Assembly: GCA_964405805.1 (NCBI GenBank)
Contig: CAYOPE010000001.1
Location: 4,898 to 68,897, forward strand
Reading direction: 5' to 3'
Length of the DNA: 64,000 nt
DNA from: an uncultured Candidatus Saccharibacteria bacterium
GTDB taxonomy: Bacteria; Patescibacteriota; Doudnabacteria; UBA920; O2-02-FULL-48-8
Shown here: piece by piece, positions 15,318 through 41,385 of the stretch
How positions within the stretch are numbered: the first letter of the stretch is position 1
How the letters are laid out: each line of letters opens with the position of its first letter
Translations under genes and position numbers: made by a program
Notes under the pieces: model-generated
What the model was told of the DNA's origin: nothing
Seen by the model: the letters and a program-made list of their open reading frames with translations, nothing else
Databases searched by the model: none

Positions 15318-15395
15318 TACGAAGTACGAAATGGGTACGAAAATACGAAAGGTTATCTCTGTTCGTACTTTCGTAAAGATTCGTAATTTCGTAGA
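15318..15395. repeat. TACGAAA inverted-repeat element, copy 1
   Basis: gtacgaaaatacgaaa...gttcgtactttcgta...attcgtaatttcgtaga. Second copy at 50157-50225. Confidence 0.7.
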
Positions 15396-15403
15396 TAAAT
15401 CCC

Positions 15404-15706
15404 ATGGATAACGAAAAGCAGAATATCAATATTAAGGTCACGGATGAGGTGCTCAAAGGCGCTTACTCAAATCTCGTCTTTGCCTCACATACCAAAGAAG
15501 AATTTATCCTCGACTTTGTCAGTGTCTTCGGCCCACAGGGCGTAGAAGTGGCGAAAATCATCACCAGTCCCGGGCATTTCAAGCGAATTGTCGCGGCCAT
15601 GCAGGACAACCTCAAGCGCTATGAGGAACAATTTGGTAAAATAGAGGTACAGGCACCAGGTAATCAATCTCAAAACACTTCCGAATCTTCGAAATTCGGG
15701 TTCTAA
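15404..15706 (+). CDS. Small hypothetical protein (possibly DUF3467-like)
   Basis: ...GAYSNLVFASHTKEEFILDFVSVFGP... resembles the DUF3467 core as I recall it; the family call is tentative. Confidence 0.45.
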   Translation: MDNEKQNINIKVTDEVLKGAYSNLVFASHTKEEFILDFVSVFGPQGVEVAKIITSPGHFKRIVAAMQDNLKRYEEQFGKIEVQAPGNQSQNTSESSKFGF

Positions 15707-15716
15707 ACCAAAATAA

Positions 15717-16502
15717 ATGGATTCACAATTACTGAAAAGAGTAATGTTGGCATTTTTAGCAGTAGCATGCTTTGCCTTTGCCTGGCAGACGCTTGCTACT
15801 GCTTTAAACCATTATTCAGACTTGTCAGTTTGGATCGCACCAGTGGTGCTGGCTTCACTAGGAAGTGTGTTTCTCTCGCTTCTGGCCATCGTGGGCAGTA
15901 GTAAATGGTTTTTCGTCAGCACGAATCTCGCGGTACTACTCTGTTATGTCGCACTCATGCCTAAAAATTTATATGTAGTAGCTGGGGGCGCTATGTTTTT
16001 CTGTCTAAGCTTTCTGTTTGAGCAGCGCGTGAAGTCTGACGAAAAAAGTCGCGCAGATTTTTCGCTTCACAGAGTCCTGCGCAGTAGTGTTTATGTGATT
16101 CTTTACGCTTTACTGCTTATGATTGGCTTTAATATCTACGCTAGAGCAGCTATTAGTCTTGAAAAAGATCCTAAGCACTTCTATGATCGAGTCGGATACT
16201 ATGCCTCCATCGAACTCGAGCATGTGCCGAGCAACCTAGTCGGACTAAATCCGAAAGATCCGCTGATCAAGGACGCTGTCGCAGGCTTGGTCTCTGAAAC
16301 TTTACAGAAACAAGCCTCGAATTATCAGAAATTTTTACCAGTAGCGTTTGCACTACTAGCAGTAGCATTGCTTCGGACGATTGGAATCATATTTATCTGG
16401 CTGACCATGCTATTTGCTCAGATAATTTTTCGATTTTTATTATTCATCAAATTTTTCCGCATCGAACCTGTGCAGGTTGAGGTCCGTAAGCTCCAGATTT
16501 AA
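15717..16502 (+). CDS. Hypothetical polytopic membrane protein
   Basis: Six or more hydrophobic segments; lies between dnaK and dnaJ. Confidence 0.55.
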   Translation: MDSQLLKRVMLAFLAVACFAFAWQTLATALNHYSDLSVWIAPVVLASLGSVFLSLLAIVGSSKWFFVSTNLAVLLCYVALMPKNLYVVAGGAMFFCLSFLFEQRVKSDEKSRADFSLHRVLRSSVYVILYALLLMIGFNIYARAAISLEKDPKHFYDRVGYYASIELEHVPSNLVGLNPKDPLIKDAVAGLVSETLQKQASNYQKFLPVAFALLAVALLRTIGIIFIWLTMLFAQIIFRFLLFIKFFRIEPVQVEVRKLQI

Positions 16503-16504
16503 CT

Positions 16505-17614
16505 ATGGCAAATGATTATTATCAAACTTTAGGCGTGTCGAAAACTGCCAATGCTGACGAGATCAAGCGGGCGTATCGGAAATTGGCGCACGAGCATCAT
16601 CCGGATAAAAACAAAGGCGATGAAGCTAAGTTTAAAGAGATAAACGAAGCGTATCAGGTGCTGTCCAATCCAGATAAGCGCTCGCAGTATGATCGGTTTG
16701 GTGCAGCAGGTTTTTCCGCCGGAGGCGGACCAGCCTCTGGCTGGAATCCGCAGGATTTTGCAGGTTTTAATGTTGATTTCGAAGACGCGTTCGATATTTT
16801 TTCTGACATGTTTGGCGGAGGCGGTCGAAGAACAAGACGCGAGAGAGGCGTGGACCTCGAAATGGAACTCAATCTTACTTTTGATGAAGCAGTTTTTGGT
16901 GTCGAGAAAGAATTGACTCTGGAAAAAACTGATGCTTGCGAGCACTGCAAAGGATCAGGCGCAGAAGTCGGCAGCAAAATTTCCACTTGCCCGAAATGTC
17001 ATGGCCAGGGACAAATCCGAGTTACTCGCAGGACTATCCTAGGACAGATGCAAACAGTCACGACCTGTGATAAGTGCGATGGATCCGGAAAAGTTCCAGA
17101 AAAAGCTTGTCCGGTCTGTAATGGAAGCGGGCAGAAGAGACGAGTCAAGACTTTGACAGTAAAAATTCCAGCTGGAGTGGAAAATGGCCAGCGTATTAGG
17201 ATTGCAAACGAAGGCGAAGTGGGCTACAAAGGTTCAAATTTTGGCGATTTGTATTTGCGCTTGCATGTCTCTGGCAAAAAAGGCTTTAAGCGTGAGGGTG
17301 CCGATATTTATTCTGAAAGCGGCATCAGTTTTTACCAGGCTGCACTGGGGACTACTATTGATGTGCAGACGGTTGACGGCATTATCAAGATGAAAGTCCC
17401 AGCAGGCACGCAATCAGAGAAAGTTTTCCGCCTGAAAGGCAAAGGAGCTCCAGTTCTGAATAGTTCTGGTCGAGGAGACCATTTTGTCACAGTTCACGTC
17501 ATCACACCCACGAAACTTACCAAGAAAGAAAAAGATTTATTTAAAAAACTCGCTGACGAATCCGGCGAGTCAGTAGAAGTCGACGAAGGCTTCTGGAGTA
17601 GATTTACATCGTGA
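16505..17614 (+). CDS. dnaJ: Chaperone DnaJ
   Basis: J domain with HPD (EHHPDKN), Gly-rich linker and four CxxCxGxG zinc repeats. Confidence 0.95.
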   Translation: MANDYYQTLGVSKTANADEIKRAYRKLAHEHHPDKNKGDEAKFKEINEAYQVLSNPDKRSQYDRFGAAGFSAGGGPASGWNPQDFAGFNVDFEDAFDIFSDMFGGGGRRTRRERGVDLEMELNLTFDEAVFGVEKELTLEKTDACEHCKGSGAEVGSKISTCPKCHGQGQIRVTRRTILGQMQTVTTCDKCDGSGKVPEKACPVCNGSGQKRRVKTLTVKIPAGVENGQRIRIANEGEVGYKGSNFGDLYLRLHVSGKKGFKREGADIYSESGISFYQAALGTTIDVQTVDGIIKMKVPAGTQSEKVFRLKGKGAPVLNSSGRGDHFVTVHVITPTKLTKKEKDLFKKLADESGESVEVDEGFWSRFTS

Positions 17615-18122
17615 GCAAATATATAAAAGGAGTGCTAGGTCTTTATTTGATTTTGTTGCCAATTCTTTTTATTTATGATCGGCAAGTTTTTCGCTTTGGA
17701 TTTTTAGGGACAGACACCAAAGCTTTTTTATTTTCGCAGTTACAATTTTGGTTTTTTATTTAGGTTTGAAATTTTTTCGAATCCAAAATTCGATCAATCT
17801 AAATATTAAAATTATAATTTACGCAATTTTTATTGCGATTGCTGAGGAAGCGATATTCCGAGGAGCGATTCAAGGATATTTACAGACCGAAATGAATATA
17901 GTCAGCGCTATCCTGCTTTCAGCCTTAATTTTTGGACTGGCGCATTTATTTAATGGGGCCAAAGGTTTAACTATTCAAAAATGGAACTGGCGACTCGTGG
18001 GTTTAACTTTTTTGGCAGGTATCCCTTTAGGATTGCTATTTGCATTCACTCAGAGTTTACTGTTACCCGCAATATTACATACGATTTTTATCGTTGGAAT
18101 AAAAAATTTTTCGAGTATATAA
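17611..18122 (+). pseudogene. CPBP (CAAX/Abi) family intramembrane metalloprotease, apparently frameshifted
   Basis: The C-terminal 124-aa ORF (frame 3) has EEAIFRG and FGLAHLFNG motifs. A hydrophobic N-terminal segment VSKYIKGVLGLYLILLPILF... sits in frame 1 upstream. The frames are separated by poly-T tracts around 17727-17760. Confidence 0.5.
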
Positions 18123-18123
18123 A

Positions 18124-18165
18124 AAAATCGGCTGGTCTTGGAATTTGCAGTCTTCCAAAACCAGC
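18124..18165 (-). terminator. 40-nt hairpin terminator, copy 1 of 3 identical copies
   Basis: aaaatcggctggtcttggaatttgcagtcttccaaaaccagc. On the minus strand it is a stem-loop followed by GATTTTT; downstream of the 18191-18958 gene. Confidence 0.65.
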
Positions 18166-18190
18166 GGACAATCAGCTGTGCCGCAGCCGA

Positions 18191-18958
18191 TTAGTGAGTC
18201 CCAGGCGACTTCGTTTTCGGTATTCGACCGCCGAGTTCGAGAATGTGTCCCGCTTGTTCAGTGGTCAATCCGAGGACTGAAGGTTTGAGCTGCTCTGTGG
18301 TCAGCCATTTGTATAGATTTTGAAATGCGTAAGAGAACCTTGCGAGGAGCGTCACGTCATCATTGTTGGTGCTTTTTTCTTCTTGAAGCCAGGCTTGGTA
18401 GGTTTCTGGACCCTTTTTGGCTGCTTCGACCAGCCTGATTTCTTTGAGCTCTTCGTCGTCCGCGATATTCCATTCTCTCTTCAAGTCAACCTGAAGCTCT
18501 TTTTTCAGTTCTTCGATCCTATAGGACAGGTCGCTGTTGCTTTGGGTCCACAGAGGAATCGGATTGTCGTAGCTGAATGCTTCTCGAGGCTCAAACGTGC
18601 AGTGAACGAAGTCCTCATACCTGTCGGCGTATCTCATCCTGATCGTCAACTTTTCGAGTAGAGTTCCACCGTTTTTTTTCCGAAGCCCATTCAGTTCTTG
18701 AGCCGTGGTTTTGAGACTTTCGAACAGGGTCTTGTCTTCGTTCGTTTTTTGTACGAGCACGGACGTCGCGGCATAGCGATCGAAGTACGAACAGATGCTC
18801 TCGCTGAGCGGTTCGGTTCGGACATTCTGTAGAAAGATTGCCAGCCGCGCGATCATCTGCTCACGTTCTTTGTCTTTTCCCTGCGCCGAGGTTGGCACGG
18901 CAGCGAACCCGACGAACAACAGAACCAGCGCGATCAGTCCGATCAGTCGTTTCGTCAT
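18191..18958 (-). CDS. Secreted hypothetical protein, paralog 1 (signal peptide MTKRLIGLIALVLLFVGFAAVPTSAQ)
   Basis: Signal peptide plus a 229-aa mature part. Shares a conserved ICSYFDRY / FCSYYERW motif with the neighbouring paralog. Confidence 0.7.
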   Translation of the reverse strand: MTKRLIGLIALVLLFVGFAAVPTSAQGKDKEREQMIARLAIFLQNVRTEPLSESICSYFDRYAATSVLVQKTNEDKTLFESLKTTAQELNGLRKKNGGTLLEKLTIRMRYADRYEDFVHCTFEPREAFSYDNPIPLWTQSNSDLSYRIEELKKELQVDLKREWNIADDEELKEIRLVEAAKKGPETYQAWLQEEKSTNNDDVTLLARFSYAFQNLYKWLTTEQLKPSVLGLTTEQAGHILELGGRIPKTKSPGTH

Positions 18959-19015
18959 GTCATCCTCCCTTCGGATGTGCAGGAGTTATAGCATGAAGAC
19001 GATGCTTTGGTCAAT
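18881..19015 (-). repeat. 5' module, copy 1: ~137 nt identical to 19722-19857
   Basis: Identical sequence covers the signal-peptide coding region, RBS (GGAGGATGACATG in reverse complement) and ~57 nt of 5' UTR. Confidence 0.85.
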
Positions 19016-19016
19016 A

Positions 19017-19059
19017 AAAATCGGCTGGTCTTGGAATTTGCAGTCTTCCAAAACCAGCC
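19017..19059 (-). terminator. 40-nt hairpin terminator, copy 2
   Basis: Identical to 18124-18165; downstream of the 19074-19799 gene. Confidence 0.65.
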
Positions 19060-19073
19060 GTTGCTGCCTGCTT

Positions 19074-19799
19074 CTATGAGCTGGGTTTTCTGAATCCTGG
19101 CGCGGGCATGCTGTGACATTCCATGATTCGCTCAAGTTCCTGCGGTTTCAATGACCAGATCGATGGCGAAACTTGAAAGCGATGATCAGTCATCAGATAC
19201 CAGATCCAGAATGATTCTTTGCAACCTTTTTCGCCTGACTTCCACTGGTTGCGCACGTTCTGAATGTCTTTTATAGACTGCTGGTACAGGTGATCGTTCA
19301 CTTCTTCGATTGACGGAATGTCTTTTGACGAGTAGCTAAGAGCGCTTTCTTTTATCAGGCGATTGAGTAGCAGCGCTACCTCGTACACATTGTCTGTGTA
19401 CAAGGAAAGATCTTCCACGGTTCCTGGTGAAAGTGGCGTTTGAAATCTGCACGTGATCGGGAGGCCATATCCGTACAGTTCGCGTGGTAGTTTTTTGGCC
19501 AATTCACTAGCGGCTGTGCGCTTTGCCAATTCTGCACCGAGATCAGAAACTCCCACGCTTTTCTGCAATTCCTGGTTGAGATTGAGACGGTCGAACAGAA
19601 CCTCGGCTGCTCGCCATCGTTCGTAATAGCTGCAGAATTCGTTGGTTAGGGGTTGCAGTTCCAGGTTCGCGACGATGTTTTTGAGATACGCCACTTGATC
19701 GAACTTCTCTCCGTTACAGCATTGCGCCGAGGTTGGCACGGCAGCGAACCCGACGAACAACAGAACCAGCGCGATCAGTCCGATCAGTCGTTTCGTCAT
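19074..19799 (-). CDS. Secreted hypothetical protein, paralog 2 (identical signal peptide, divergent mature part)
   Basis: The first 26 aa and upstream DNA are identical to paralog 1; the mature 215 aa have diverged. Confidence 0.7.
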   Translation of the reverse strand: MTKRLIGLIALVLLFVGFAAVPTSAQCCNGEKFDQVAYLKNIVANLELQPLTNEFCSYYERWRAAEVLFDRLNLNQELQKSVGVSDLGAELAKRTAASELAKKLPRELYGYGLPITCRFQTPLSPGTVEDLSLYTDNVYEVALLLNRLIKESALSYSSKDIPSIEEVNDHLYQQSIKDIQNVRNQWKSGEKGCKESFWIWYLMTDHRFQVSPSIWSLKPQELERIMECHSMPAPGFRKPSS

Positions 19800-19876
19800 G
19801 TCATCCTCCCTTCGGATGTGCAGGAGTTATAGCATGAAGACGATACTTTGGTCAAAATTTAATTATAAGCTATAAT

Positions 19877-20526
19877 TGTGGAGGGCGCCCCTCCACATAT
19901 GCAATATCGAGATTATAAACAATTTTTTGAAGGCGGAGTTTATCATATTTATAGTCGCGGCCATAACAAAATGGCAGTTTTTCGAGATACTGAAGACTAT
20001 AAATTTTTCCTGCAGCGCCTAGCGGAAATATTAAGCCTTAAGCCTTCTAAAAGCAGATGGCTGAGACCTTTGCCTAAGGGTTCGTTTACGATTTTATGCT
20101 ATTGCCTGATGCCGAACCATTTCCATTTTATAATTCAGCAAGAAACCAAGCTTCCGGTTTCTAAAATAATAGGGAAGTTGTTGACTAGCTACGGGATTTA
20201 TTTTAATAAAAAGTACCAGCAAGTCGGAACAATATTTCAGGATAGATTTATGTCTAAAGAAATTAATAATGATGAGTATTTAGTTCCTTTATCTGCATAC
20301 ATTCATAAGAATCACGCTAAATTTCTTTCTTGGAGATTTTCCAGTTTGGATGACTATATTAAAGGCGACAAAGAACTAATCGTTGACTCGACTTTGATAC
20401 TAAGTATGTTCAACAAAGATCGTCATCGATATTATAAATACATAAAAAGTTATAATAAAACTAAGGAAGATTTGATTACGGATTTAAAATTCGACGAATA
20501 AACGATGTGGAGGGCGCCCCTCCACA
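19877..20526 (+). mobile_element. REP-flanked RAYT (IS200/IS605-like Y1 transposase) unit
   Basis: Identical 21-bp perfect palindromes TGTGGAGGGCGCCCCTCCACA at 19877-19897 and 20506-20526 bracket the transposase gene. Confidence 0.75.
19899..20501 (+). CDS. REP-associated tyrosine transposase (RAYT / IS200-like TnpA)
   Basis: HuH motif LMPNHFHFII and catalytic Tyr in SAYIHKNH (YIHxNP-like); ~200 aa. Confidence 0.8.
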   Translation: MQYRDYKQFFEGGVYHIYSRGHNKMAVFRDTEDYKFFLQRLAEILSLKPSKSRWLRPLPKGSFTILCYCLMPNHFHFIIQQETKLPVSKIIGKLLTSYGIYFNKKYQQVGTIFQDRFMSKEINNDEYLVPLSAYIHKNHAKFLSWRFSSLDDYIKGDKELIVDSTLILSMFNKDRHRYYKYIKSYNKTKEDLITDLKFDE

Positions 20527-20528
20527 TA

Positions 20529-20572
20529 AAAAATCGGCTGGTCTTGGAATTTGCAGTCTTCCAAAACCAGCC
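20529..20572 (-). repeat. 40-nt hairpin element, copy 3 (abuts the 3' REP)
   Basis: Identical to copies at 18124 and 19017. Confidence 0.6.
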
Positions 20573-20782
20573 GTGGTCAGCCAGAAATTTGAGCGTCCTA
20601 CGTTCGGATTCGTTCGAGCTTTCGCTGCCCTCGCCTGAGAGGTTGATCAAGATTGCTCAAGAGGTGGGTGGGCAGTTCGACAGGCTTGCCGCCGTTTTTG
20701 AATACAAGCCTGCCGTCTCGCCACTCCAATTCTTTCCCTGGGTGGCGCATCTGAGCCCAACGCACCGCGAAGTTGCGGTCTC

Positions 20783-21081
20783 TCATTCAGTCCTCCATGG
20801 CAGGCATCGCATCCAGGCAGCCTGTGGAATTTCGACCCGAACATCCGGGTGTTCTTCGAGGAAGAGCTTCAGGCTTTCGGGAAGAAGCCCTCCTCGCAGG
20901 CGCTCGCCAATGGCTGCGGGTGTGACGTCGCGCAGCAGAATTCCGATCATGGCTTCGAGGCCATGGATTCGCCGCACGTCACAGTCGCACTTTTCGTCGT
21001 GACATTTGTGCGTGATGCTTGTCGCCATTTCACCTCGGATCGCAGACACCACGGCCAGATCGCTTGCAGTGTAGAACATCG
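20783..21081 (-). CDS. Hypothetical protein in GC-rich segment
   Basis: ATG (MFYTASD...) 8 nt after AAGGAGG on the minus strand. Contains HKCHDEKCDC. Confidence 0.4.
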
Positions 21082-21324
21082 CTCCGTTCCTCCTTTGTAC
21101 CAAAAAAGCCGCCTTCTTTCGAAGGCGGCTTAAGATTGGCAAATAAAGTTATCTATGCCAAAAAGTCACCTTCGGCTGAAGGCTTCTTGGCTTTCTTGCT
21201 TTGTGACAGAATTAAATTCATAGATAACGTAAAGATATGTTAGAGGAATTGGTAAGGATTGTCAAACACAGAGTGGGTGGAAACGTCACGCGAACGTGGC
21301 GTCTCCACCCGTATCTGCTCTGCA

Positions 21325-21639
21325 TTACTCAGGTGACCGATACGGGAAGTGTGTTTTGTGCGTCCAGTTGCTGCCCATGGTCTTTTTGTAGAGCAACACG
21401 CCTGTGCCCCACTCAGTGACGAAGACGTCGCTTCGGTACTGCTTACCATCGAAGCAGCCGATCTCCCAGGTCAGCGGCGGGTAGAGTTCGCCGCCGCCGA
21501 TCGGTCGATCCTCGCGACTGCTGTCCACGCACACCACGCGGATCCCATGTTCCTTGAACACGATCTCGTTCGGCGCTGCCAACACCCAGAGAAGGAAACC
21601 AATGAGCGCCACGAGCATTGCTTTCTTCAGAATTTCCAT
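21325..21639 (-). CDS. Hypothetical small secreted protein in GC-rich segment
   Basis: MEILKKAMLVALIGFLLWVLAAP is signal-peptide-like; RBS GAGGTG. Confidence 0.4.
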   Translation of the reverse strand: MEILKKAMLVALIGFLLWVLAAPNEIVFKEHGIRVVCVDSSREDRPIGGGELYPPLTWEIGCFDGKQYRSDVFVTEWGTGVLLYKKTMGSNWTHKTHFPYRSPE

Positions 21640-21830
21640 CGCGCACCTCGCAGAAGAGTTGTAAACTACAGAGCATCTGTTTCCGAGCAATTTCGCCAGG
21701 AATTTGGCAAGTTTGCTACAGACGCAGATAACTATAGTTGATTCTAAATTATCTACTTTCTGGGACTTTTGTCAAATGCCGAGATCTTGAAAAAAATCCC
21801 AAAATCTGTATAATACCTAGGCCCTTATGA

Positions 21831-21905
21831 GGGTGCGTAGCTCAGTGGTAGAGCACCTGCCTTTTAAGCAGAGGGTCGCGCGTTCGATCCGCGCCGCACC
21901 CACCA
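21831..21905 (+). tRNA. tRNA-Lys (anticodon UUU as read)
   Basis: 75-nt cloverleaf: acceptor GGGTGCG/CGCACCC, D-arm GCTCAGTGGTAGAGC, anticodon loop CUUUUAA, T-arm GCGCG-TTCGATC-CGCGC, 3' CCA. Confidence 0.8.
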
Positions 21906-21911
21906 AGAATC

Positions 21912-22385
21912 ATGAATGACGAATCATATTTTTTACGACGAATAATTCAGCCAGGACTTCTGGGGCTCATGGACGGCTCAGTCTCAACCCTTGCCCCATT
22001 GTTTGCTGCTGCCTTTGCCACGCGAAACCCGCATGTGGCTTTTTTGATCGGCACATCTGCTGCCACTGGCGCTGCTATTTCTATGGCCTTTGCCGAAGGC
22101 TTGTCTGACAGTGGGGAGCTCACAGGGCGAGGACAACCAGTCATGCGTGGCTCGATCACGGGCCTGATGACTTTTTTTGGTGGCATTCTTCACACATTAC
22201 CATTTTTACTTCGCGATTTGCATGAGGCATTGTATCTTGCATATTTTATAGTTGGCATTGAGCTGATCTGCATTGCATTTATCCGATACCGATACATGAA
22301 AATGAATTTTTGGTGGTCCATGGTGCAGGTGGTGGTCGGCGGGGTACTAGTTTTTCTGGCAGGTTTCTTGATCGGGAGTAGCTAA
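21912..22385 (+). CDS. VIT1/CCC1 family membrane protein
   Basis: Gly/Ala-rich TM helices ...LMDGSVSTLAPLFAAAFA... typical of the VIT family. Confidence 0.6.
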   Translation: MNDESYFLRRIIQPGLLGLMDGSVSTLAPLFAAAFATRNPHVAFLIGTSAATGAAISMAFAEGLSDSGELTGRGQPVMRGSITGLMTFFGGILHTLPFLLRDLHEALYLAYFIVGIELICIAFIRYRYMKMNFWWSMVQVVVGGVLVFLAGFLIGSS

Positions 22386-23068
22386 TGCTGGAAAGACTTC
22401 AAAAATACATTTCCCAGGCAGGGATAGCCTCGCGCAGACACGCTGAGGAGCTGATTGTGGCTGGAAAAGTTAAGGTTAATGGCCAAGTTGTAAAGCAACT
22501 TGGGACCAAAGTTGATCCTGCGAAAGATCAGGTAGAAGTTGAAGGCAAAAAAATTCGTTTGCAGAAGCTGGTTTACCTTATGATGAACAAGCCGAAGCGG
22601 ACTATGACTACCAGGCACGATCCGCGGGCGCGAAAAACCGTGTTTGAATTGCTGCCACCGAACCTCCGAAACGTGGTCTGGCCAGTGGGCCGACTCGACT
22701 TTGATACCGAAGGACTTTTGCTGTTTACAAACGACGGTGATCTGACACAGATGTTGACTCATCCGTCCAATGAACACGAAAAAGAATACGAAGTTGAGCT
22801 AGACAAAGAATTATCTCCTGGGCGAATTGAGAAGATCGAAACCGGCATGATGATTGATGGCAAAAAAACTGCGCCGAGTACCATTCGTACGAATGGTACT
22901 ACAGTGTATATCACGATTCATGAGGGCATGAATCGGCAGGTCAGGAAAATGTTTGGCAGCCTCGGCTACTCGGTTCGAAACCTCAGGCGCATCCGAATTG
23001 GCAAATTAAAACTGAATGATTTACAATTAGGGCAGTACAAAATTATTGACAGAAAGGATATAATTTAA
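22385..23068 (+). CDS. rRNA pseudouridine synthase (RsuA/RluB family)
   Basis: S4 domain ...ASRRHAEELIVAGKVKVNG... and catalytic VWPVGRLDFDTEGLLLFTNDGDL. Confidence 0.85.
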   Translation: MLERLQKYISQAGIASRRHAEELIVAGKVKVNGQVVKQLGTKVDPAKDQVEVEGKKIRLQKLVYLMMNKPKRTMTTRHDPRARKTVFELLPPNLRNVVWPVGRLDFDTEGLLLFTNDGDLTQMLTHPSNEHEKEYEVELDKELSPGRIEKIETGMMIDGKKTAPSTIRTNGTTVYITIHEGMNRQVRKMFGSLGYSVRNLRRIRIGKLKLNDLQLGQYKIIDRKDII

Positions 23069-23388: not shown

Positions 23389-24630
23389 ATGCGGAAACAA
23401 ACAACACAAGAAAAAAAACAGATAGTAATACTCGGTGGCGGGTTCGCTGGCGTGCGAGCGGCTTTAGATTTGGATGATTACCTGCATGATGATGAAAATT
23501 ACGAAATCATTCTCATCGATCGGAAAGATTATCAGTGCTATCACGCTGGCCTCTACGAAGCAGCTACCACAGAGCATACTTTAGTAGCTGCGCGCAAAGT
23601 CAAACGGACTGTGGCCATTCCTTTTAGCGATATTTTTCCTCACACGAAAGTGAAAGTCTATAAAGCATATATTGAGCGGATCGATACAGTCAGTGGTAAG
23701 GTCGTGACTGATTCAAAAATTATACCTTATGATTACCTGGTCGTAGCTATGGGTAGCATGGCGGATTTTTATGATATTCCGAATCTCGACAAGTATGGCT
23801 ATACCCTGAAAAATTTGGAAGATGCGATCATGATTCGTAATCGGATCGAGGATTTGGTCATGAAAAATGATCAAGGGCAAATAATTATCGGCGGCGGCGG
23901 GTTTGCTGGAGTAGAATTCGCTTCAGAACTTCATAATTTGCTCAAGCATGAATGCCGAGATCATCAGAAAGACCCGAGCAAGTTTAAAATATTGATTGTC
24001 GAAGGTGGCACGAATTTTCTTCCCGGCCTTTCTGAGAAAGTTTCAGGCATGGTAGCAAGCAGAATGGCAGAGATGGGAGTGGAATCCAAGTTTAGCAGCC
24101 TGATCACTGAAGTAGGGAGTGATTTTGTCATGTTGAACATGAAAGATCGGATGCCTGCTGATCTACTGATCTGGACCGGGGGAGTCAGGTCGTGCGTCCT
24201 GCCAGTCGACTGTGCGCTCGAGCATGATAAAAAAGACCGGACCCTGACTTTGCCATCACTAAACCTGGGTCATTGCACAAATATTTTTATTATCGGCGAC
24301 AATCTCTGCATGGTGGATCCAATGACGAAAAAAATGGTGCCGCAAACTGCCCAGGAAGCAGTTCACCAGGGCAAACTAGCGGCGAAAAATATTTATCGCA
24401 TGATAAAAAACAAAACTCTACTGCCGTATCATCCGACTAGCTTGCGTTATGTCATTCCTGTGGGCGGCAAATTTGCCATCATGTATAGCCCGAACCTGAT
24501 CATTTCTGGCTTCTGGGGCTGGGTGATTCGTAAGGCTGCTGACCTGCGGTATTTCATGTCAGTTCTACCGATCTGGAAAGCTCTGGGCTACTGGCTGTTT
24601 GAAAATAATATTTTTATGAAAAATGATTAA
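23389..24630 (+). CDS. FAD/NAD(P)-binding oxidoreductase (type II NADH dehydrogenase-like)
   Basis: IVILGGGFAGV and a second IIIGGGGFAGVE dinucleotide-binding motif. Confidence 0.75.
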   Translation: MRKQTTQEKKQIVILGGGFAGVRAALDLDDYLHDDENYEIILIDRKDYQCYHAGLYEAATTEHTLVAARKVKRTVAIPFSDIFPHTKVKVYKAYIERIDTVSGKVVTDSKIIPYDYLVVAMGSMADFYDIPNLDKYGYTLKNLEDAIMIRNRIEDLVMKNDQGQIIIGGGGFAGVEFASELHNLLKHECRDHQKDPSKFKILIVEGGTNFLPGLSEKVSGMVASRMAEMGVESKFSSLITEVGSDFVMLNMKDRMPADLLIWTGGVRSCVLPVDCALEHDKKDRTLTLPSLNLGHCTNIFIIGDNLCMVDPMTKKMVPQTAQEAVHQGKLAAKNIYRMIKNKTLLPYHPTSLRYVIPVGGKFAIMYSPNLIISGFWGWVIRKAADLRYFMSVLPIWKALGYWLFENNIFMKND

Positions 24631-24636
24631 ATAATT

Positions 24637-25308
24637 ATGATATTTTCTCATTCAGTATTACCAATTTTAATTCTTTGGTTCGGAGTAGTGGTTTGGCATT
24701 TGATCAGATATCATACTTTCAAGTTCCATAAATTTAGATTTTCTGTAGGCAATCATTACTTAATGATGTCCAGTTTTGTCATAGGTTTACTACTTTATGC
24801 TTATGACATTCATTCGGTTAAGCCCATCATTATGTTTTTTGGATTTGCTTTGGCTGGAATCTCTGGTGTTATTTACGAAGAGTTGTTTGGTAAACATTTC
24901 TTACGAAGACGAGATCGAAAAGTCCACTGGTCTTGGTTTATTACGAGTTTTATCGGTTTAGTAATTTTAATTACCTGGTTTTTTTATTCCCGAGTGGGTA
25001 TTAATTCTATTTATGCCACTTCCATAGCATTTGTATGTATCGCAATATGTATAATTTTTATACGAAGAGATTTAATTTGGGATTCTCTACTAAGCGGAAT
25101 ATTAGTAGCATGTGTTATGTTATTAAGCTATCTAATTTTTTTAACGATTTTTCCTGAAGCGATAAAAAGATGGTGGTTTTTAAACAATATCAGTGGCATT
25201 TTGTTTTTAGGCATACCAATTGAGGAATTACTTTGGGCATTTTCCTGGGGACTCGTAGGCGGTCCAATCTACGAATTTATGGTGGGATTAAAATTTAAGA
25301 AGAGATAA
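24637..25308 (+). CDS. Hypothetical membrane protein
   Basis: Multiple TM helices; no family assigned. Confidence 0.5.
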   Translation: MIFSHSVLPILILWFGVVVWHLIRYHTFKFHKFRFSVGNHYLMMSSFVIGLLLYAYDIHSVKPIIMFFGFALAGISGVIYEELFGKHFLRRRDRKVHWSWFITSFIGLVILITWFFYSRVGINSIYATSIAFVCIAICIIFIRRDLIWDSLLSGILVACVMLLSYLIFLTIFPEAIKRWWFLNNISGILFLGIPIEELLWAFSWGLVGGPIYEFMVGLKFKKR

Positions 25309-25352
25309 ACCGGCCTTTTTTGTTTTGTCCAAATTTGATAGAATGAGTCACT

Positions 25353-26435
25353 ATGAACCGAGGTTTCTGGGATAAACTAAAAAAACCGATAATGGCTCTC
25401 GCGCCCATGGCGGATGTGACGGATGCGGTTTTCAGGCAGATAATCGCCAAGTACGGCAAGCCTGCCCGCCATGCCTCGGACGAGGCTCATCAACAAGGTG
25501 TGGCAGGCGGGCCTGACGTATTTTTTACAGAATTCGTGTCCACGGACGGGCTTATGTCAGAAGGACGCAAGCGATTGCTGGTGGATTTTTGGTATGGCGA
25601 AAACGAGCATCCGATAGTGGCGCAGATTTTCGGATCCGTACCAGAAAAATTTGAGCAAGTAGCGAAGATGATCGTGGAGCTGGGGTTTGACGGCGTGGAT
25701 ATAAACATGGGCTGCCCAGTAAAAAAAGTGCTCAATCAGAATTCCTGCTCAGCCCTGATCCGAACGCCGAAGCTGGCGCAAGAAATCGTGGAAGCGACCA
25801 AGCGCGGTGCTGGCAATCTGCCAGTATCCATAAAAACCCGAATTGGATTTAACAAAATTGACATTGAGAACTGGATCCCAACGCTTCTTCAGACGAAGCC
25901 AGCGGCACTGACTGTGCATTTGCGCACTGTGAAAGAAATGTCTTTGGTCCCAGCTCACTGGGAGCTCATGCCGAGGATTGTGGAGCTTGTAAATCAGCAG
26001 GCTCCGGAAGATCGCCCTCTGATTCTGGGCAATGGAGATGTGAAGACGGTGACAGAAGCCGAAGAAAAATGCGCGCAGACAGGTGCGGACGGGGTGATGA
26101 TAGGGCGAGGGATCTTTGGCAACCCGTGGCTTTTCTCCTCCCCTAGAATAGGGGAGGTTGGGAGGGGTAGAACCTATACTCCGTCAGTATCCGAAAAACT
26201 TCGAGTCATGATTGAGCACACGAAACTGTTTGAAGAGAAATTTAAAGGCTTAAAAAATTTTGACATCATGAAAAAGCACTACAAAGCCTATGTCAACGGC
26301 TTTGATGGCGCGAAGGAACTGCGCACGAAATTGATGGAAGCGAAAACGGCTGCTGAAGTAGAAAGTTTAGTTCAAGAATTTCTAGTTGCCACCTCTCTGC
26401 CGCTGCGCGGCATCTCTCCTGGGAGGAGAGAATAA
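25353..26435 (+). CDS. dus: tRNA-dihydrouridine synthase
   Basis: ALAPMADVTD...MGCP...IGRG motifs. Carries an in-frame 36-nt copy of the R1/R2 repeat (26135-26172, peptide SSPRIGEVGRGR). Confidence 0.88.
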   Translation: MNRGFWDKLKKPIMALAPMADVTDAVFRQIIAKYGKPARHASDEAHQQGVAGGPDVFFTEFVSTDGLMSEGRKRLLVDFWYGENEHPIVAQIFGSVPEKFEQVAKMIVELGFDGVDINMGCPVKKVLNQNSCSALIRTPKLAQEIVEATKRGAGNLPVSIKTRIGFNKIDIENWIPTLLQTKPAALTVHLRTVKEMSLVPAHWELMPRIVELVNQQAPEDRPLILGNGDVKTVTEAEEKCAQTGADGVMIGRGIFGNPWLFSSPRIGEVGRGRTYTPSVSEKLRVMIEHTKLFEEKFKGLKNFDIMKKHYKAYVNGFDGAKELRTKLMEAKTAAEVESLVQEFLVATSLPLRGISPGRRE

Positions 26436-38998: not shown

Positions 38999-40246
38999 AT
39001 GGCGCGCGAACAAATATTTGTGGGCCTCGATATCGGATCATCCATGATCCGAGTGGTGGTCGGAAAGCAAGAATCAGAGCTAGGCACACCTAGTATTATT
39101 GGCGTTGGCGAAGCCACCTCTGCTGGCATTCGTAGAGGCGTGATTGTCGACATTGACGAAGCCGTATCCTCGATCTCAGAAGCGCTAGAAAAAGCCGAAC
39201 GCATGACTGGACTGACTATCGACCATGCTGTGGTCTCTGTCGGAGGTGCGCAAATCACGTCCCAGGAAAGCCACGGCGTGATTGCTGTGGCTCGGGCTGA
39301 TGGGGAGATTACCGAAAACGATGTTGTGAGAGTCGTCGACGCTTCGCAAGCCATTTCCATTCCAGCAAATAGAGAAATTCTCCATGTCATCCCGAAAAAT
39401 TTCACAGTGGATGGTCAGACTGGAATCAAAGATCCAGTGGGCATGTCAGGAATTCGCCTGGAAGTCGACAGCCAGATCATTCAGGCCTCAGTGCCATTTA
39501 TAAAAAACCTGACCAAGTGCATCATGCAGGCAGGACTTGAGATTGATGACTTGGTTTTATCACCTCTTGCCGCTGCTCAAGCAGTTTTGAGTAAAAAGCA
39601 AAAAGAATTAGGCGTGGGATTAGTTGATCTCGGCGGCGGGACCACTGGTCTGATCGTTTTTGAAGAAGGCGATCTGGTTTCTTCCACGATTTTGCCAGTA
39701 GGCAGCATGCATATCACGAATGATTTAGCTATCGGCCTTCGCACTTCTGTGGATGCTGCGGAAAAAATCAAGCTCCAGTACGGCCAGGCCGAGATGCGGG
39801 AAGTGAAAAAAGATTTGGATGTGGATTTGGCCAAAATCGACAGGCAAGAAGAAGGAAAGGTGTCAGTTAAGCACATCGCTGAGATCATTGAGGCGCGTTT
39901 GGAAGAGACTTTTGAGCTTGTAAATAAAGAATTGAAGAAAATCAACAAAGACGGCCAGCTGCCAGCTGGAATTGTCTTGACAGGTGGTGGCGCAAAACTT
40001 CCCGGTGTGGTAGAATTAGCCAAAAAGCAGTTGCGTTTACCAGTAGTCAGTGGTCTTCCGGGTTCAGTGACTACTGTCATTGACCGAGTCGATGACCCAT
40101 CGTTTGCTACAGCAGTAGGTTTGGTCCTCTGGGCCAATGAATTTTTACTCGGCAGCAGTCGCACTGTAAATAAATTTGCTCGCAAGGTCCTAGAAAACGA
40201 TACAGTGAACAATTTACGGAAATGGTTTAAGAGTTTTCTCCCATGA
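38999..40246 (+). CDS. ftsA: Cell division protein FtsA
   Basis: Actin-fold motifs [15 protein letters not shown] and [17 protein letters not shown], plus a C-terminal amphipathic tail. Confidence 0.9.
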
Positions 40247-41385
40247 AATTAAGATCCCAACAAGTGAGTCCCAAAATTCAAACTTTTGCTCGAATTAAAG
40301 TTATCGGCGTGGGCGGCTCAGGCCACAATGCCATCCATCGCATGATGGAAACCGGTATTCATGGTGTGGAATTTGTCGCTATCAACACTGATGCACAAGC
40401 GCTTCACAATTCCGAAGCTGATTATAAAATTCATATCGGAAAAACTTTGACTCGTGGTCTTGGCGCTGGTATGAATCCAGACATTGGTCGTGCTGCAGCA
40501 GAAGAATCCAAAGATGAGATCCTAGATGTCATTCGGAACGCTGACATGGTCTTTATCACTTGTGGTCTTGGTGGTGGTACTGGTACTGGCGCTGCTCCAG
40601 TCGTGGCCGAGCTTGCGAAGAAGACTGGCATTCTGACCGTAGGTGTAGTCACCAGGCCATTTGCTTTTGAGGGTCTGAAGCGAAAAGAGATTGCTGAGAA
40701 GGGCCTAGATCAGCTCAAGCAGCATGTCGATACCATAATCGTCATTCCGAATGATCGAATTTTACAAATTATTGATAAAAAAACTTCGCTTCTTGATGCT
40801 TTCCGTACTGTGGATGATGTTCTGCACCAAGGTGTGGCTGGAATTTCGGATTTGATCACTACACCTGGCATGATCAATGTTGACTTTGCTGATGTGAAGG
40901 CAGTCATGCAGAATGCAGGCTCAGCACTTATGGGCATTGGCCGCGGCACTGGCGAAAATCGAGCCATGGATGCAGCCAGAGCAGCAATTGATTCGCCATT
41001 ACTCGAACTTTCTATTGACGGGGCACGTGGAGTCCTCTTTAACATCACTAGCGGCAAGGATTTGAGCATGTATGAGGTGGAAGAAGCCGCGAAATTTATT
41101 ACCAAATCAGTGGATCCAGATGCAAAAATTATTTTTGGCGCAGTTATCGACGATGAGATGGACGAAGAAGTGAAGATTACTGTGGTCGCCACAGGTTTTT
41201 CCGCCGGAGGCGGATCCGCCTATGGCGGAGATGATACATATAAACGACGGGAAGAACCCATGAAGACTGAAGTGAAGAAGCCGGTGTTTGCACCGAAAGT
41301 CATTGAAGAAGAACCAGAGCATCACGACACTTCAGATCAAGACGAACTCGAGATCCCAGCGTTTATACGAAAGAAGATTAAATAG
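40243..41385 (+). CDS. ftsZ: Cell division protein FtsZ
   Basis: Tubulin signature [14 protein letters not shown]-terminal conserved peptide [12 protein letters not shown]. Confidence 0.97.

Follow-up and report, generated by a model that had tools for sequence, protein, structure and literature searches.

Two tandem genes for strongly diverged secreted proteins with a near-identical terminator, promoter and leader segment, probably homogenised by recombination

The window analysed here, a stretch of 64,000 nt (64 kb), contains two tandem genes for predicted secreted proteins that are nearly identical at their 5' ends and in their terminator hairpins, and strongly diverged in the mature parts between them. 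The best explanation overall, to which we assign a probability of roughly 0.7, is that gene 1 and gene 2 are two old, fast-evolving tandem paralogs whose segment of terminator, promoter and leader was homogenised by recombination.

Two tandem genes and their products

Both genes were taken from the list of open reading frames and lie on the minus strand. Gene 1 (18191..18958), the tandem member facing the CPBP/dnaJ side, encodes a protein of 255 aa (P0001), and gene 2 (19074..19799) encodes one of 241 aa (P0002); they matched the family profile with E values of 2e-85 and 3e-79, respectively. The list of reading frames and a repeat scan bore out the original prediction of two units for secreted proteins with shared ends.

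The two products begin with the same residues, MTKRLIGLIALVLLFVGFAAVPTSAQ. A 26-aa Sec-type leader (18881-18958 in gene 1, 19722-19799 in gene 2) is followed by a mostly helical mature part of 229 aa in P0001 and a mature part of 215 aa in P0002, the lengths originally given. By inspection, the leader has a basic K3-R4, a 17-residue hydrophobic core and a T-S-A end followed by Q, and the signal peptide is probably cut after T-S-A, before Gln26. A lipobox is absent from both proteins, the leader ending in TSA-Q with no L-x-x-C box; P0002 has a Cys at +2/+3, after the Gln. No repeats internal to either gene were found in a repeat scan of 17000-23000.

The shared 5' module

The shared module was located by a repeat scan and compared base by base. 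Its copies, at 18882-19014 and 19723-19855 on the minus strand, are identical at 132 of 133 nt (99.2%; blastn within the window, E 6e-65). Near-identity of this segment thus stood, and the original figures of about 137 nt at 100% were slightly overstated, the module being 133 nt long with one mismatch. The identity tract starts exactly at TTGACC and ends two bases into the Gln26 codon (CAG in one gene, CAA in the other), so that its coding part consists of leader codons 1-25 and two bases of codon 26.

In module 1, a -35 element TTGACC (19014-19009), a -10 element TATAAC (18990-18985), a Shine-Dalgarno sequence GGGAGG (18969-18964) and the ATG (18958) were recognised, corresponding in module 2 to 19855-19850, 19831-19826, 19810-19805 and 19799. 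The spacer between -35 and -10 is 18 nt long and ends in TG-C. This arrangement (TTGACC-18-TATAAC, with TG upstream) forms a putative sigma-70-like promoter, which a simple promoter consensus scan missed owing to the final C of the -10. A similar promoter lies upstream of the family homologs in the related loci L008 and L012.

No further copy of the module or of the hairpin described below was found in the 64-kb window or in the public collections scanned. Other reading frames with the same signal-peptide module, as suggested originally, were sought in metagenome_contigs with the leader patterns MTKRLIGL and FVGFAAVP, and no relative was found.

Terminator hairpins and the RAYT-like element

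Three minus-strand hairpins were identified: H1 (18123-18168; -22.7 kcal/mol, z -5.3) as the putative terminator of gene 1, H2 (19016-19061; -26.2 kcal/mol, z -5.4) as that of gene 2, and H3 (20529-20574; -26.2 kcal/mol, z -6.3) behind the unrelated orf98/orf62 pair. A 36-nt core is identical in all three copies, where 0 matches are expected by chance. The identical 40-nt terminators originally described for the two units hold: H2 and H3 are 100% identical over 46 nt, and H1 matches across 43-44 nt.

H1 is composed of a 13-bp main stem with 3 outer pairs past a 1-nt bulge, a 9-nt loop and U7. In the minus-strand RNA the hairpins (-22.7 to -26.2 kcal/mol, z -5.3 to -6.3) are directly followed by U5-U7, and at one position of the stem the minus strand has a G.U pair, the plus strand a C.A mismatch. 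By the criterion of a stable GC-containing stem-loop with a U tract, they are predicted intrinsic (Rho-independent) terminators. The simple terminator scan had a loop limit of 8 and missed the loop of 9. The core gave 0 matches as exact DNA in genome_contigs and, with a free loop, 0 matches in metagenome_contigs.

H2 is separated by a single base from the gene 1 -35 and forms with module 1 a contiguous repeat unit of 180 nt. The sequences on either side of H2 are not those found beside H1 and H3. H3 would abut module 2 once a RAYT-like Y1-transposase unit (19856..20528, plus strand, 33% GC), located between H3 and promoter 2, is removed.

This unit comprises an AT palindrome (19857-19876), two REP-like hairpins (19877-19899 and 20506-20528) and a reading frame (19899..20501). 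The frame passed the Pfam model Y1_Tnp (1.7e-10, 41.5 bits, cut-off 23) and reached 42.7 bits against NCBIfam REP_Tyr_transpos, under the cut-off of 80; an exact look-up found no identical product on record. The two palindromes flanking it have no other copies within the 64-kb window. A Y1_Tnp-family frame tightly bracketed by short GC-rich palindromes resembles REP/RAYT and IS200-like Y1 units, and the homologous L012 locus contains a similar palindrome. The terminator hairpin of the two genes differs from these palindromes in having another sequence and a U tract, and it is tied to the transposase by adjacency only. That the third hairpin abuts a RAYT-like element and that a CPBP (Rce1-like) frame is adjacent agrees with the original prediction.

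Protein family and predicted structure

A profile search of 1.84 billion representatives placed the two proteins in an unannotated family of about 10 clusters. Besides the two, it returned 8 members matching over their full length of 220-262 aa, with E values from 3e-22 to 1.6e-4, and one short-stretch match in a protein of 1927 aa, P0008, which was left out of the family (P0001-P0007 and P0009-P0011). Word-index searches with the family alignments recovered at least 3-4 members; with a single protein they returned the protein itself and its paralog only, and an exact look-up found no identical product on record for P0001.

Residues C30, R35, A38, C94, P200 and S201 (mature P0001 numbering) are invariant in the alignment. 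Every member has, by inspection, a Sec-type leader ending in A-x-A-Q and the two invariant cysteines, which probably form a disulfide. The gene is single-copy in all 17 related loci recovered. We regard this as a rare, lineage-restricted and previously unannotated family of Sec-exported helical proteins of about 215-230 mature residues.

Structure prediction, as originally proposed, yielded a confident and mostly helical AF2 model of P0001 (pLDDT 84.8, pTM 0.79); the model obtained when AF2 was fed the two paralogs alone was unusable (pLDDT 46.7). Fold comparison of the confident model gave generic helical matches only, with no convincing structural relative, and PDB sequence profiles of solved structures gave 0 matches to either protein. 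Neither protein matched any toxin, peptidase, bacteriocin, defence or phage family in Pfam, NCBIfam, PADLOC or PHROGs, and tblastn against phage and plasmid collections returned no matches. From export and the helical fold only, a binding or scaffold protein of the envelope or extracellular space might be guessed as the biochemical role.

Divergence of the mature parts

Beyond the signal peptide, the bodies of the two genes are 39% identical in nucleotides, 29.5% at third positions and 23% in amino acids (codon alignment). The break in divergence falls at the last leader codon, with 132 of 133 nt identical on the module side. The original prediction held that only a short motif was retained in the mature parts; this goes too far, as the mature parts are homologous end to end and keep the residues invariant in the family. 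P0001 and P0002 were sisters in just 2% of NJ bootstrap replicates, in line with the identity matrix; resolution of the family tree is poor, the grouping of P0001 with P0003 reaching only 66% bootstrap.

Identical ends together with saturated bodies (29.5% at third positions as against 132/133) require recombination, as had been proposed from this same combination, in the form of gene conversion or unequal exchange.

Genomic neighbourhood

The family gene is convergent with dnaJ in the window and in L001, L008 and L012. This convergence is absent from the P0010 loci L013-L016, and the remaining contigs are too short to tell. In L001, genes for DUF3467, a membrane protein and DnaJ are convergent with the family gene, and a tRNA-Lys-like end is present. 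The order in L012 is tRNA-Lys, a homolog of orf62, the family gene, a REP-like palindrome and the dnaJ 3' end; in L008 the dnaJ 3' end lies downstream of the family gene, the promoter of which resembles the module. A conserved set in relatives, which the original prediction had named as speaking against its reading, was found in part, in that the gene is single-copy, convergent with dnaJ and near tRNA-Lys in L001, L008 and L012. Ancestrally, the family is best explained as one gene in convergent orientation to dnaJ, close to tRNA-Lys.

The CPBP/Rce1-like frame (17611..18122, plus strand; Pfam Rce1-like, 1.8e-18) is split over two frames, is convergent with gene 1 and overlaps the dnaJ stop codon, an overlap that suggests coupling to dnaJ. 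It is missing from L001, L008 and L012, where dnaJ directly adjoins the family gene. On the other side, orf98 (21079..20783) and orf62 (20786..20598) span 20598..21079 on the minus strand with an ATGA overlap. orf62 is 52% identical to the frame just upstream of the L012 family gene, and an exact look-up found no identical product on record for it. The pair had no family matches and is conserved context outside the secreted family. The neighbouring membrane protein, used as a synteny probe in genome_contigs, retrieved no confirmed relative, and Rfam detected two tRNAs only in the window.

Discussion

In the explanation we prefer, the repeated DNA amounts to one 180-nt segment (hairpin, promoter, 5'UTR and signal-peptide codons) present twice, plus a third hairpin. 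Each copy would form its own transcription unit, with a promoter, a short leader, a strong GGGAGG ribosome site, a signal peptide and a strong terminator. Non-reciprocal homologous recombination would have made or kept the segment near-identical, while the mature parts diverged to saturation, and the RAYT-like element would have been inserted afterwards between hairpin 3 and promoter 2. As to the route, we lean tentatively, at somewhat under even odds, towards ongoing gene conversion, or unequal crossing-over, between tandem units that the hairpin repeats delimit; capture of a divergent allele through a crossover in the hairpin is a less likely course, to which we would give about one chance in four.

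Several observations count against this explanation. The relatives are all single-copy, so an ancient duplication would require repeated loss. The bodies have lost the flanking homology on which gene conversion depends. With regard to the recombination route, no other strain or allele with the module or hairpin was found in public collections.

The tandem arrangement rests on one NCBI contig, the only one on which P0001 and P0002 occur, and an assembly chimera has therefore to be weighed: two strains, each with one body between the same hairpin and module, could have been joined by the assembler into an artificial tandem. The source is of the metagenome type, the 133-nt module exceeds many assembly k-mers, and the related loci all have a single copy. 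The contig finds backing over 15371-18151, where an independent assembly of run SRR12313479 (k=31) matched it at 100%; that assembly breaks at the hairpin, its Logan contig L018 ending 30 nt into H1, as expected at a repeat. However, the junction of gene 2 end, H2 and module 1 is a repeat of only 46 nt, shorter than the usual largest k and than a read, so that real reads would presumably be needed to form it; moreover, the flanks of H2 are unlike those of H1 and H3, and the module copies differ at one base. We consider a chimera improbable, at around one chance in ten.

A somewhat less probable account is a programmed system of variation, in which hairpins and leader modules serve as recombination sites for swapping bodies in an antigenic-variation, integron-like or RAYT-driven manner. 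In its favour, identical hairpins delimit the units, a gene for a Y1 (HUH) transposase lies against hairpin 3, and the identity tract stops precisely where the leader gives way to the mature part. Conserved 5'UTR and signal-peptide regions (PMC2268961) or promoter sequences (PMC7002432) are also shared within known families of variable lipoproteins. In the vsp genes of M. bovis and vpma genes of M. agalactiae, clustered paralogs have highly conserved 5'UTR and signal-peptide codons and mature parts of little or no similarity (PMC2268961), as at this locus. Those systems, however, consist of 6-13 genes with repeated sequences for lipoproteins with an AAKC cleavage motif, and use site-specific inversion onto one active promoter by a dedicated recombinase, whereas here there is no lipobox, no invertase was found, the repeat scan gave no internal repeats and there are two copies only, in direct orientation. 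Each copy has its own putative promoter and terminator, and hence there is no silent copy to switch.

The Borrelia OspE/F-related (Erp) proteins are different secreted proteins whose genes have similar promoter sequences, the upstream homology box (PMC7002432), and the titles of cited papers mention shared OspE/OspF-like leader peptides. They are lipoproteins encoded on multicopy cp32 prophage plasmids, with mature proteins from different families, whereas the two proteins here belong to one family and are chromosomal, beside dnaJ. Integron cassette arrays have an IntI integrase with attI and promoterless cassettes ending in attC; the units here carry their own promoter-like module, and their hairpin is terminator-like with a U tract. 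Neither an invertase nor an integron integrase was present among the locus frames scanned, where the Y1 transposase is the sole recombinase-like gene, and the RAYT-like element carries its own, different palindromes. The lack of further hairpin or module copies and the single-copy, syntenic state of the family in relatives also argue against such a system.

Lower still we place the idea that the units are mobile or exchangeable cassettes, with divergent alleles of a host-facing secreted protein captured, stacked or dropped by recombination at hairpin and module, possibly assisted by the adjacent, hairpin-recognising Y1 transposase, in what is probably an episymbiotic, naturally competent groundwater bacterium. 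If true, it would mean population-level variation of a surface or secreted factor.

We regard as very unlikely a pair of bacteriocins or polymorphic toxins to which the neighbouring CPBP/Abi protein would confer immunity. Secretion of the two proteins and the adjacency of a CPBP-family frame speak for it, but no toxin, peptidase or bacteriocin domain was found with Pfam, NCBIfam, PADLOC, PHROGs or the PDB profile, fold comparison returned generic helical matches only, the CPBP frame has the split, dnaJ-overlapping and inconstant character described above, and the family occupies a conserved chromosomal position beside the chaperone operon. The original reading as polymorphic effectors, bacteriocin-like proteins or surface antigens accordingly finds no backing in these searches, in the missing lipobox or in the two direct copies.

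A recent tandem duplication with very fast divergence of the mature parts alone, without recombination, would fit the order hairpin-unit-hairpin-unit-hairpin, which is the expected product of unequal crossing-over between flanking hairpins, but is effectively refuted by synonymous-site saturation: third positions are at random level in the bodies as against 78 nearly unchanged leader-coding bases, a pattern that selection on the protein cannot explain, and the family tree does not place the paralogs as sisters.

For the homogenisation of old tandem paralogs by recombination, the lpl tandem paralog cluster of Staphylococcus aureus, which is maintained by homologous recombination (Tsuru and Kobayashi 2008, PMC2568036), is a comparable case, the 180-nt segment of hairpin, promoter and leader being a unit of the same type. 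Recombination in lpl takes place at a conserved mid-ORF region with variable 5' and 3' parts, whereas here the intergenic region and leader are conserved, the whole mature part is variable and there are two genes only. The recombination pattern has well-known precedents; it overturns no existing ideas and represents gene-family evolution of a known type rather than a new system.

The effect of the arrangement would be that the same signals transcribe, translate and export two very different protein variants, and the 133-nt direct repeats would expose gene 2 to deletion or amplification. Mosaic evolution in a two-gene family is seen very cleanly at this natural locus, with the boundary exactly at the predicted leader cleavage site: a 180-nt block was kept near-identical while the exported parts diverged beyond recognition at the DNA level. 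New is a secreted helical family with a confident predicted fold and without known relatives, beside the dnaK-dnaJ chaperone genes of a little-sampled lineage from groundwater, which to judge from the neighbours in related contigs is probably Patescibacteria/CPR. Should these bacteria rely on contact with a host, rapidly evolving secreted proteins of this kind would be candidates for the interface.

Shared flanks of the tandem genes

Two tandem secreted-protein genes lie on the minus strand, gene 1 at 18191..18958 (255 aa, P0001) and gene 2 at 19074..19799 (241 aa, P0002), and both ORFs start with MTKRLIGLIALVLLFVGFAAVPTSAQ. By repeat search and in-window blastn, 18882-19014 and 19723-19855 are direct repeats of 133 nt that differ at one position (99.2% identity, E 6e-65). 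The shared promoter, ribosome-binding and signal-peptide module of the original prediction was therefore retained, although its 100% identity and length of ~137 nt were not. In base-by-base comparison of both modules, the identity begins precisely at the TTGACC hexamer, which an 18-nt spacer separates from TATAAC; GGGAGG comes after a further 15 nt, and five bases later the ATG opens a run of 25 identical leader codons. The identity ends two bases into codon 26, a Gln codon that is CAG in one copy and CAA in the other. The last of the 78 leader-coding bases is the sole difference there.

Three 43–46-nt hairpin copies, where none is expected by chance, were found on the minus strand by repeat search: H1 (18123-18168) behind gene 1, H2 (19016-19061) behind gene 2 and H3 (20529-20574), which adjoins a transposase unit as predicted. 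Upstream of H3 are orf98 (21079..20783) and orf62 (20786..20598), small ORFs unrelated to the family and overlapping by ATGA; neither orf98 (98 aa) nor orf62 matched a family in Pfam, NCBIfam, PADLOC or PHROGs. Folding energies as minus-strand RNA were -22.7 (H1), -26.2 (H2) and -26.2 kcal/mol (H3), with z from -5.3 to -6.3. The stem has 15 bp in H2 and H3, and 13 bp in H1 plus three more pairs past a one-base bulge; all copies have a 9-nt loop followed by 5–7 U. The stable fold, the U tract and one stem position, paired as G.U in the minus-strand RNA but mismatched (C.A) on the opposite strand, fit a putative intrinsic terminator of the minus-strand genes. It was not called by the consensus terminator scan because the loop limit of the scan was 8. 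As H2 sits one base upstream of the gene 1 -35, the true repeat is a contiguous 180-nt segment of hairpin, promoter, 5'UTR and leader.

Divergence of the mature proteins

Codon-aligned, the mature-coding parts of the two genes share 39% nucleotide, 29.5% third-position and 23% protein identity, which is random-level similarity at synonymous sites. Since the leaders differ at one base, the two parts of each gene have different histories. Recent duplication with fast protein evolution was ruled out by synonymous-site saturation in the bodies versus near-unchanged leader codons.

Neither protein matched Pfam, NCBIfam, PADLOC or PHROGs, and searching 5.8 billion proteins by word index returned only P0001 and P0002 themselves. 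A profile of both mature parts, searched against 1.84 billion representatives, gave eight more full-length proteins (220–262 aa, E 3e-22 to 1.6e-4), each matching over its full length downstream of its own leader, and also P0008, a 1927-aa protein with many short matched stretches. Invariant in the ten-sequence alignment (mature P0001 numbering) are Cys30, Arg35, Ala38, Leu74, Cys94, Leu110, Pro200 and Ser201, and the leader ends in A-x-A-Q or a close variant in every member. Judged from these end-to-end matches and shared residues, P0001 and P0002 are homologous along their whole length, and the claim that only a short ICSYFDRY motif survives was discarded. AlphaFold2 with this alignment confidently predicted helices and one beta hairpin (pLDDT 84.8, pTM 0.79); fed the two paralogs alone, it gave a useless model. 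The family is new and uncharacterised.

The locus in related genomes

The family gene was single-copy in all 17 related loci fetched. On contig L001, DUF3467, membrane protein (36% identical to that of the window) and DnaJ (63–68%) genes are convergent with it, and the tRNA-Lys region is matched at the end of the contig. On L012, tRNA-Lys, in reverse orientation, is followed by a homolog of orf62 and a terminator, then by the family gene with a TTGACG-17-TATAAC promoter in front of it, and last by the palindrome ATGTGGAGGGGCATCCTCCACAT and the 3' end of dnaJ. L008, read from its translation, has the dnaJ 3' end downstream of the family gene, whose promoter, TTGACCCAAAGGATCGAACCATGATATAAA, resembles the window module. 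Going by the single copies and dnaJ adjacency in these contigs, the family gene is ancestrally a lone gene beside dnaJ in the lineage. Positional orthologs are 21–26% identical, against 63–68% for DnaJ, and the family therefore evolves fast. The extra paralog, the RAYT-like unit and a CPBP (Rce1-like) ORF are present in the window genome and absent from these relatives. In neighbour-joining bootstraps, P0001 and P0002 came out as sisters in 2% of replicates, and 66% paired P0001 with P0003, a profile-search match, so the second copy either is old or derives from an allele or lineage that had diverged.

The sources are groundwater, a GIY-YIG ORF next to gatB and a T4SS_pilin domain occur in related contigs, and the window has LCP, ComEC and type IV pilus genes. 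From these features we infer a probable Patescibacteria/CPR lineage.

The RAYT-like insertion and neighbouring regions

The only DNA between H3 and module 2 is a RAYT-like unit of ~672 bp (19856-20528; GC 33% vs 47% for the window), placed exactly between H3 and the gene 2 -35. Within it, an AT palindrome precedes a Y1-transposase ORF (19899..20501; Pfam Y1_Tnp 1.7e-10, NCBIfam RAYT model score below its cut-off) that has a palindrome with a 9-bp stem on either side. The two copies bracketing the ORF, TGTGGAGGGCGCCCCTCCACATA, are direct, and no further ones occur within the 64-kb window. Without the unit, H3 would adjoin module 2 just as H2 adjoins module 1, and the element is therefore a later insertion into the terminator/promoter junction. 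The L012 palindrome (1498-1520), on a short contig with no transposase, is related to that of the RAYT-like unit and lies between family gene and dnaJ, so a REP-like palindrome family seems common to the lineage.

The orf62 product is a basic 62-aa protein, 52% identical to the ORF at L012:302-487 in the equivalent position. A small ORF at 21325-21690 (probable start 21639, ~104 aa, GC3 0.73) encodes a hydrophobic segment at the N-terminus and has a strong terminator to itself (21106-21131); no homolog was seen among the fetched loci. GC3 in the minus-strand block 18191-21690, between dnaJ/CPBP and tRNA-Lys (21831-21905), is 0.54–0.73 vs 0.43–0.50 in dnaK, dnaJ, VIT1 and rluB. Between tRNA-Lys and the family gene, L001 has uppS and aspartate kinase and L012 only orf62. 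Given the GC3 shift and the differing gene content, the block looks like a variable region beside a tRNA gene.

The CPBP gene (17611-18122, GC 34%, AT-rich) is divided, around a T6 run, between the frames 17611..17763 and 17748..18122, which overlap, and it starts at a GTG that shares bases with the stop codon of dnaJ (GTGA). Its sequence is identical in an independent assembly (L018); the gene is a pseudogene, or else the frameshift is genuine. Elsewhere, a 31–33% GC stretch at 24600-25400 coincides with a 223-aa Lycopene_cyc-domain protein, and a 39-nt, 90% match of 41192-41229 to dnaJ (16707-16745) lies within ORF 40243..41385, which may encode another DnaJ-like zinc-finger protein.

Probable recombination and its significance

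We conclude that the 180-nt flank of two old paralogs was homogenised by non-reciprocal homologous recombination. The preferred route would be continuing gene conversion or unequal crossing-over among hairpin-bounded tandem units, with exchange tracts restricted to the sole homology left. Alternatively, a divergent allele may have been stacked by crossover within the hairpin; DNA uptake is conceivable, as ComEC and a type IV pilus ATPase are encoded in the window.

It is unlikely that the tandem was joined artificially from two strains during assembly. An independent k=31 assembly of SRR12313479 matches 15371-18151 exactly and ends 30 nt into H1, which shows no more than that the reads contain the hairpin as a repeat; at the H2 junction the repeat is only 46 nt long, so reads should support that junction. 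The divergence profile bears out recombination, in line with the gene conversion originally proposed; the functional reading as polymorphic effectors, bacteriocins or antigen variation found no support. A programmed cassette or antigenic-variation system is still less probable: there are just two copies, both direct and each under a promoter of its own; further hairpin or module copies were absent from the 64-kb window and the contig collections searched; and the RAYT palindromes differ from the cassette hairpin. A bacteriocin with CPBP as immunity protein is very improbable, both proteins lacking a toxin domain and the CPBP partner being non-conserved, frame-split and convergent.

In Mycoplasma vsp/vpma genes, 5'UTR and signal-peptide regions are likewise conserved and mature parts unrelated (PMC2268961), and Borrelia upstream-homology-box genes have promoter sequences in common (PMC7002432), as the window modules do. 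The S. aureus lpl cluster is the nearest precedent as to the unit of evolution, but its conserved part is the central ORF region rather than the flank. The locus falls outside all three systems, having no lipobox, no invertase among the locus ORFs scanned and no plasmid location, and the repeat scan reported nothing repeated inside either gene. The feature is real and shows a familiar type of evolutionary pattern, here in a family of secreted proteins that is new and uncharacterised. By either route, both protein variants would be driven by common signals, namely promoter, ribosome site, leader and terminator, and the 133-nt direct repeats render gene 2 deletable.
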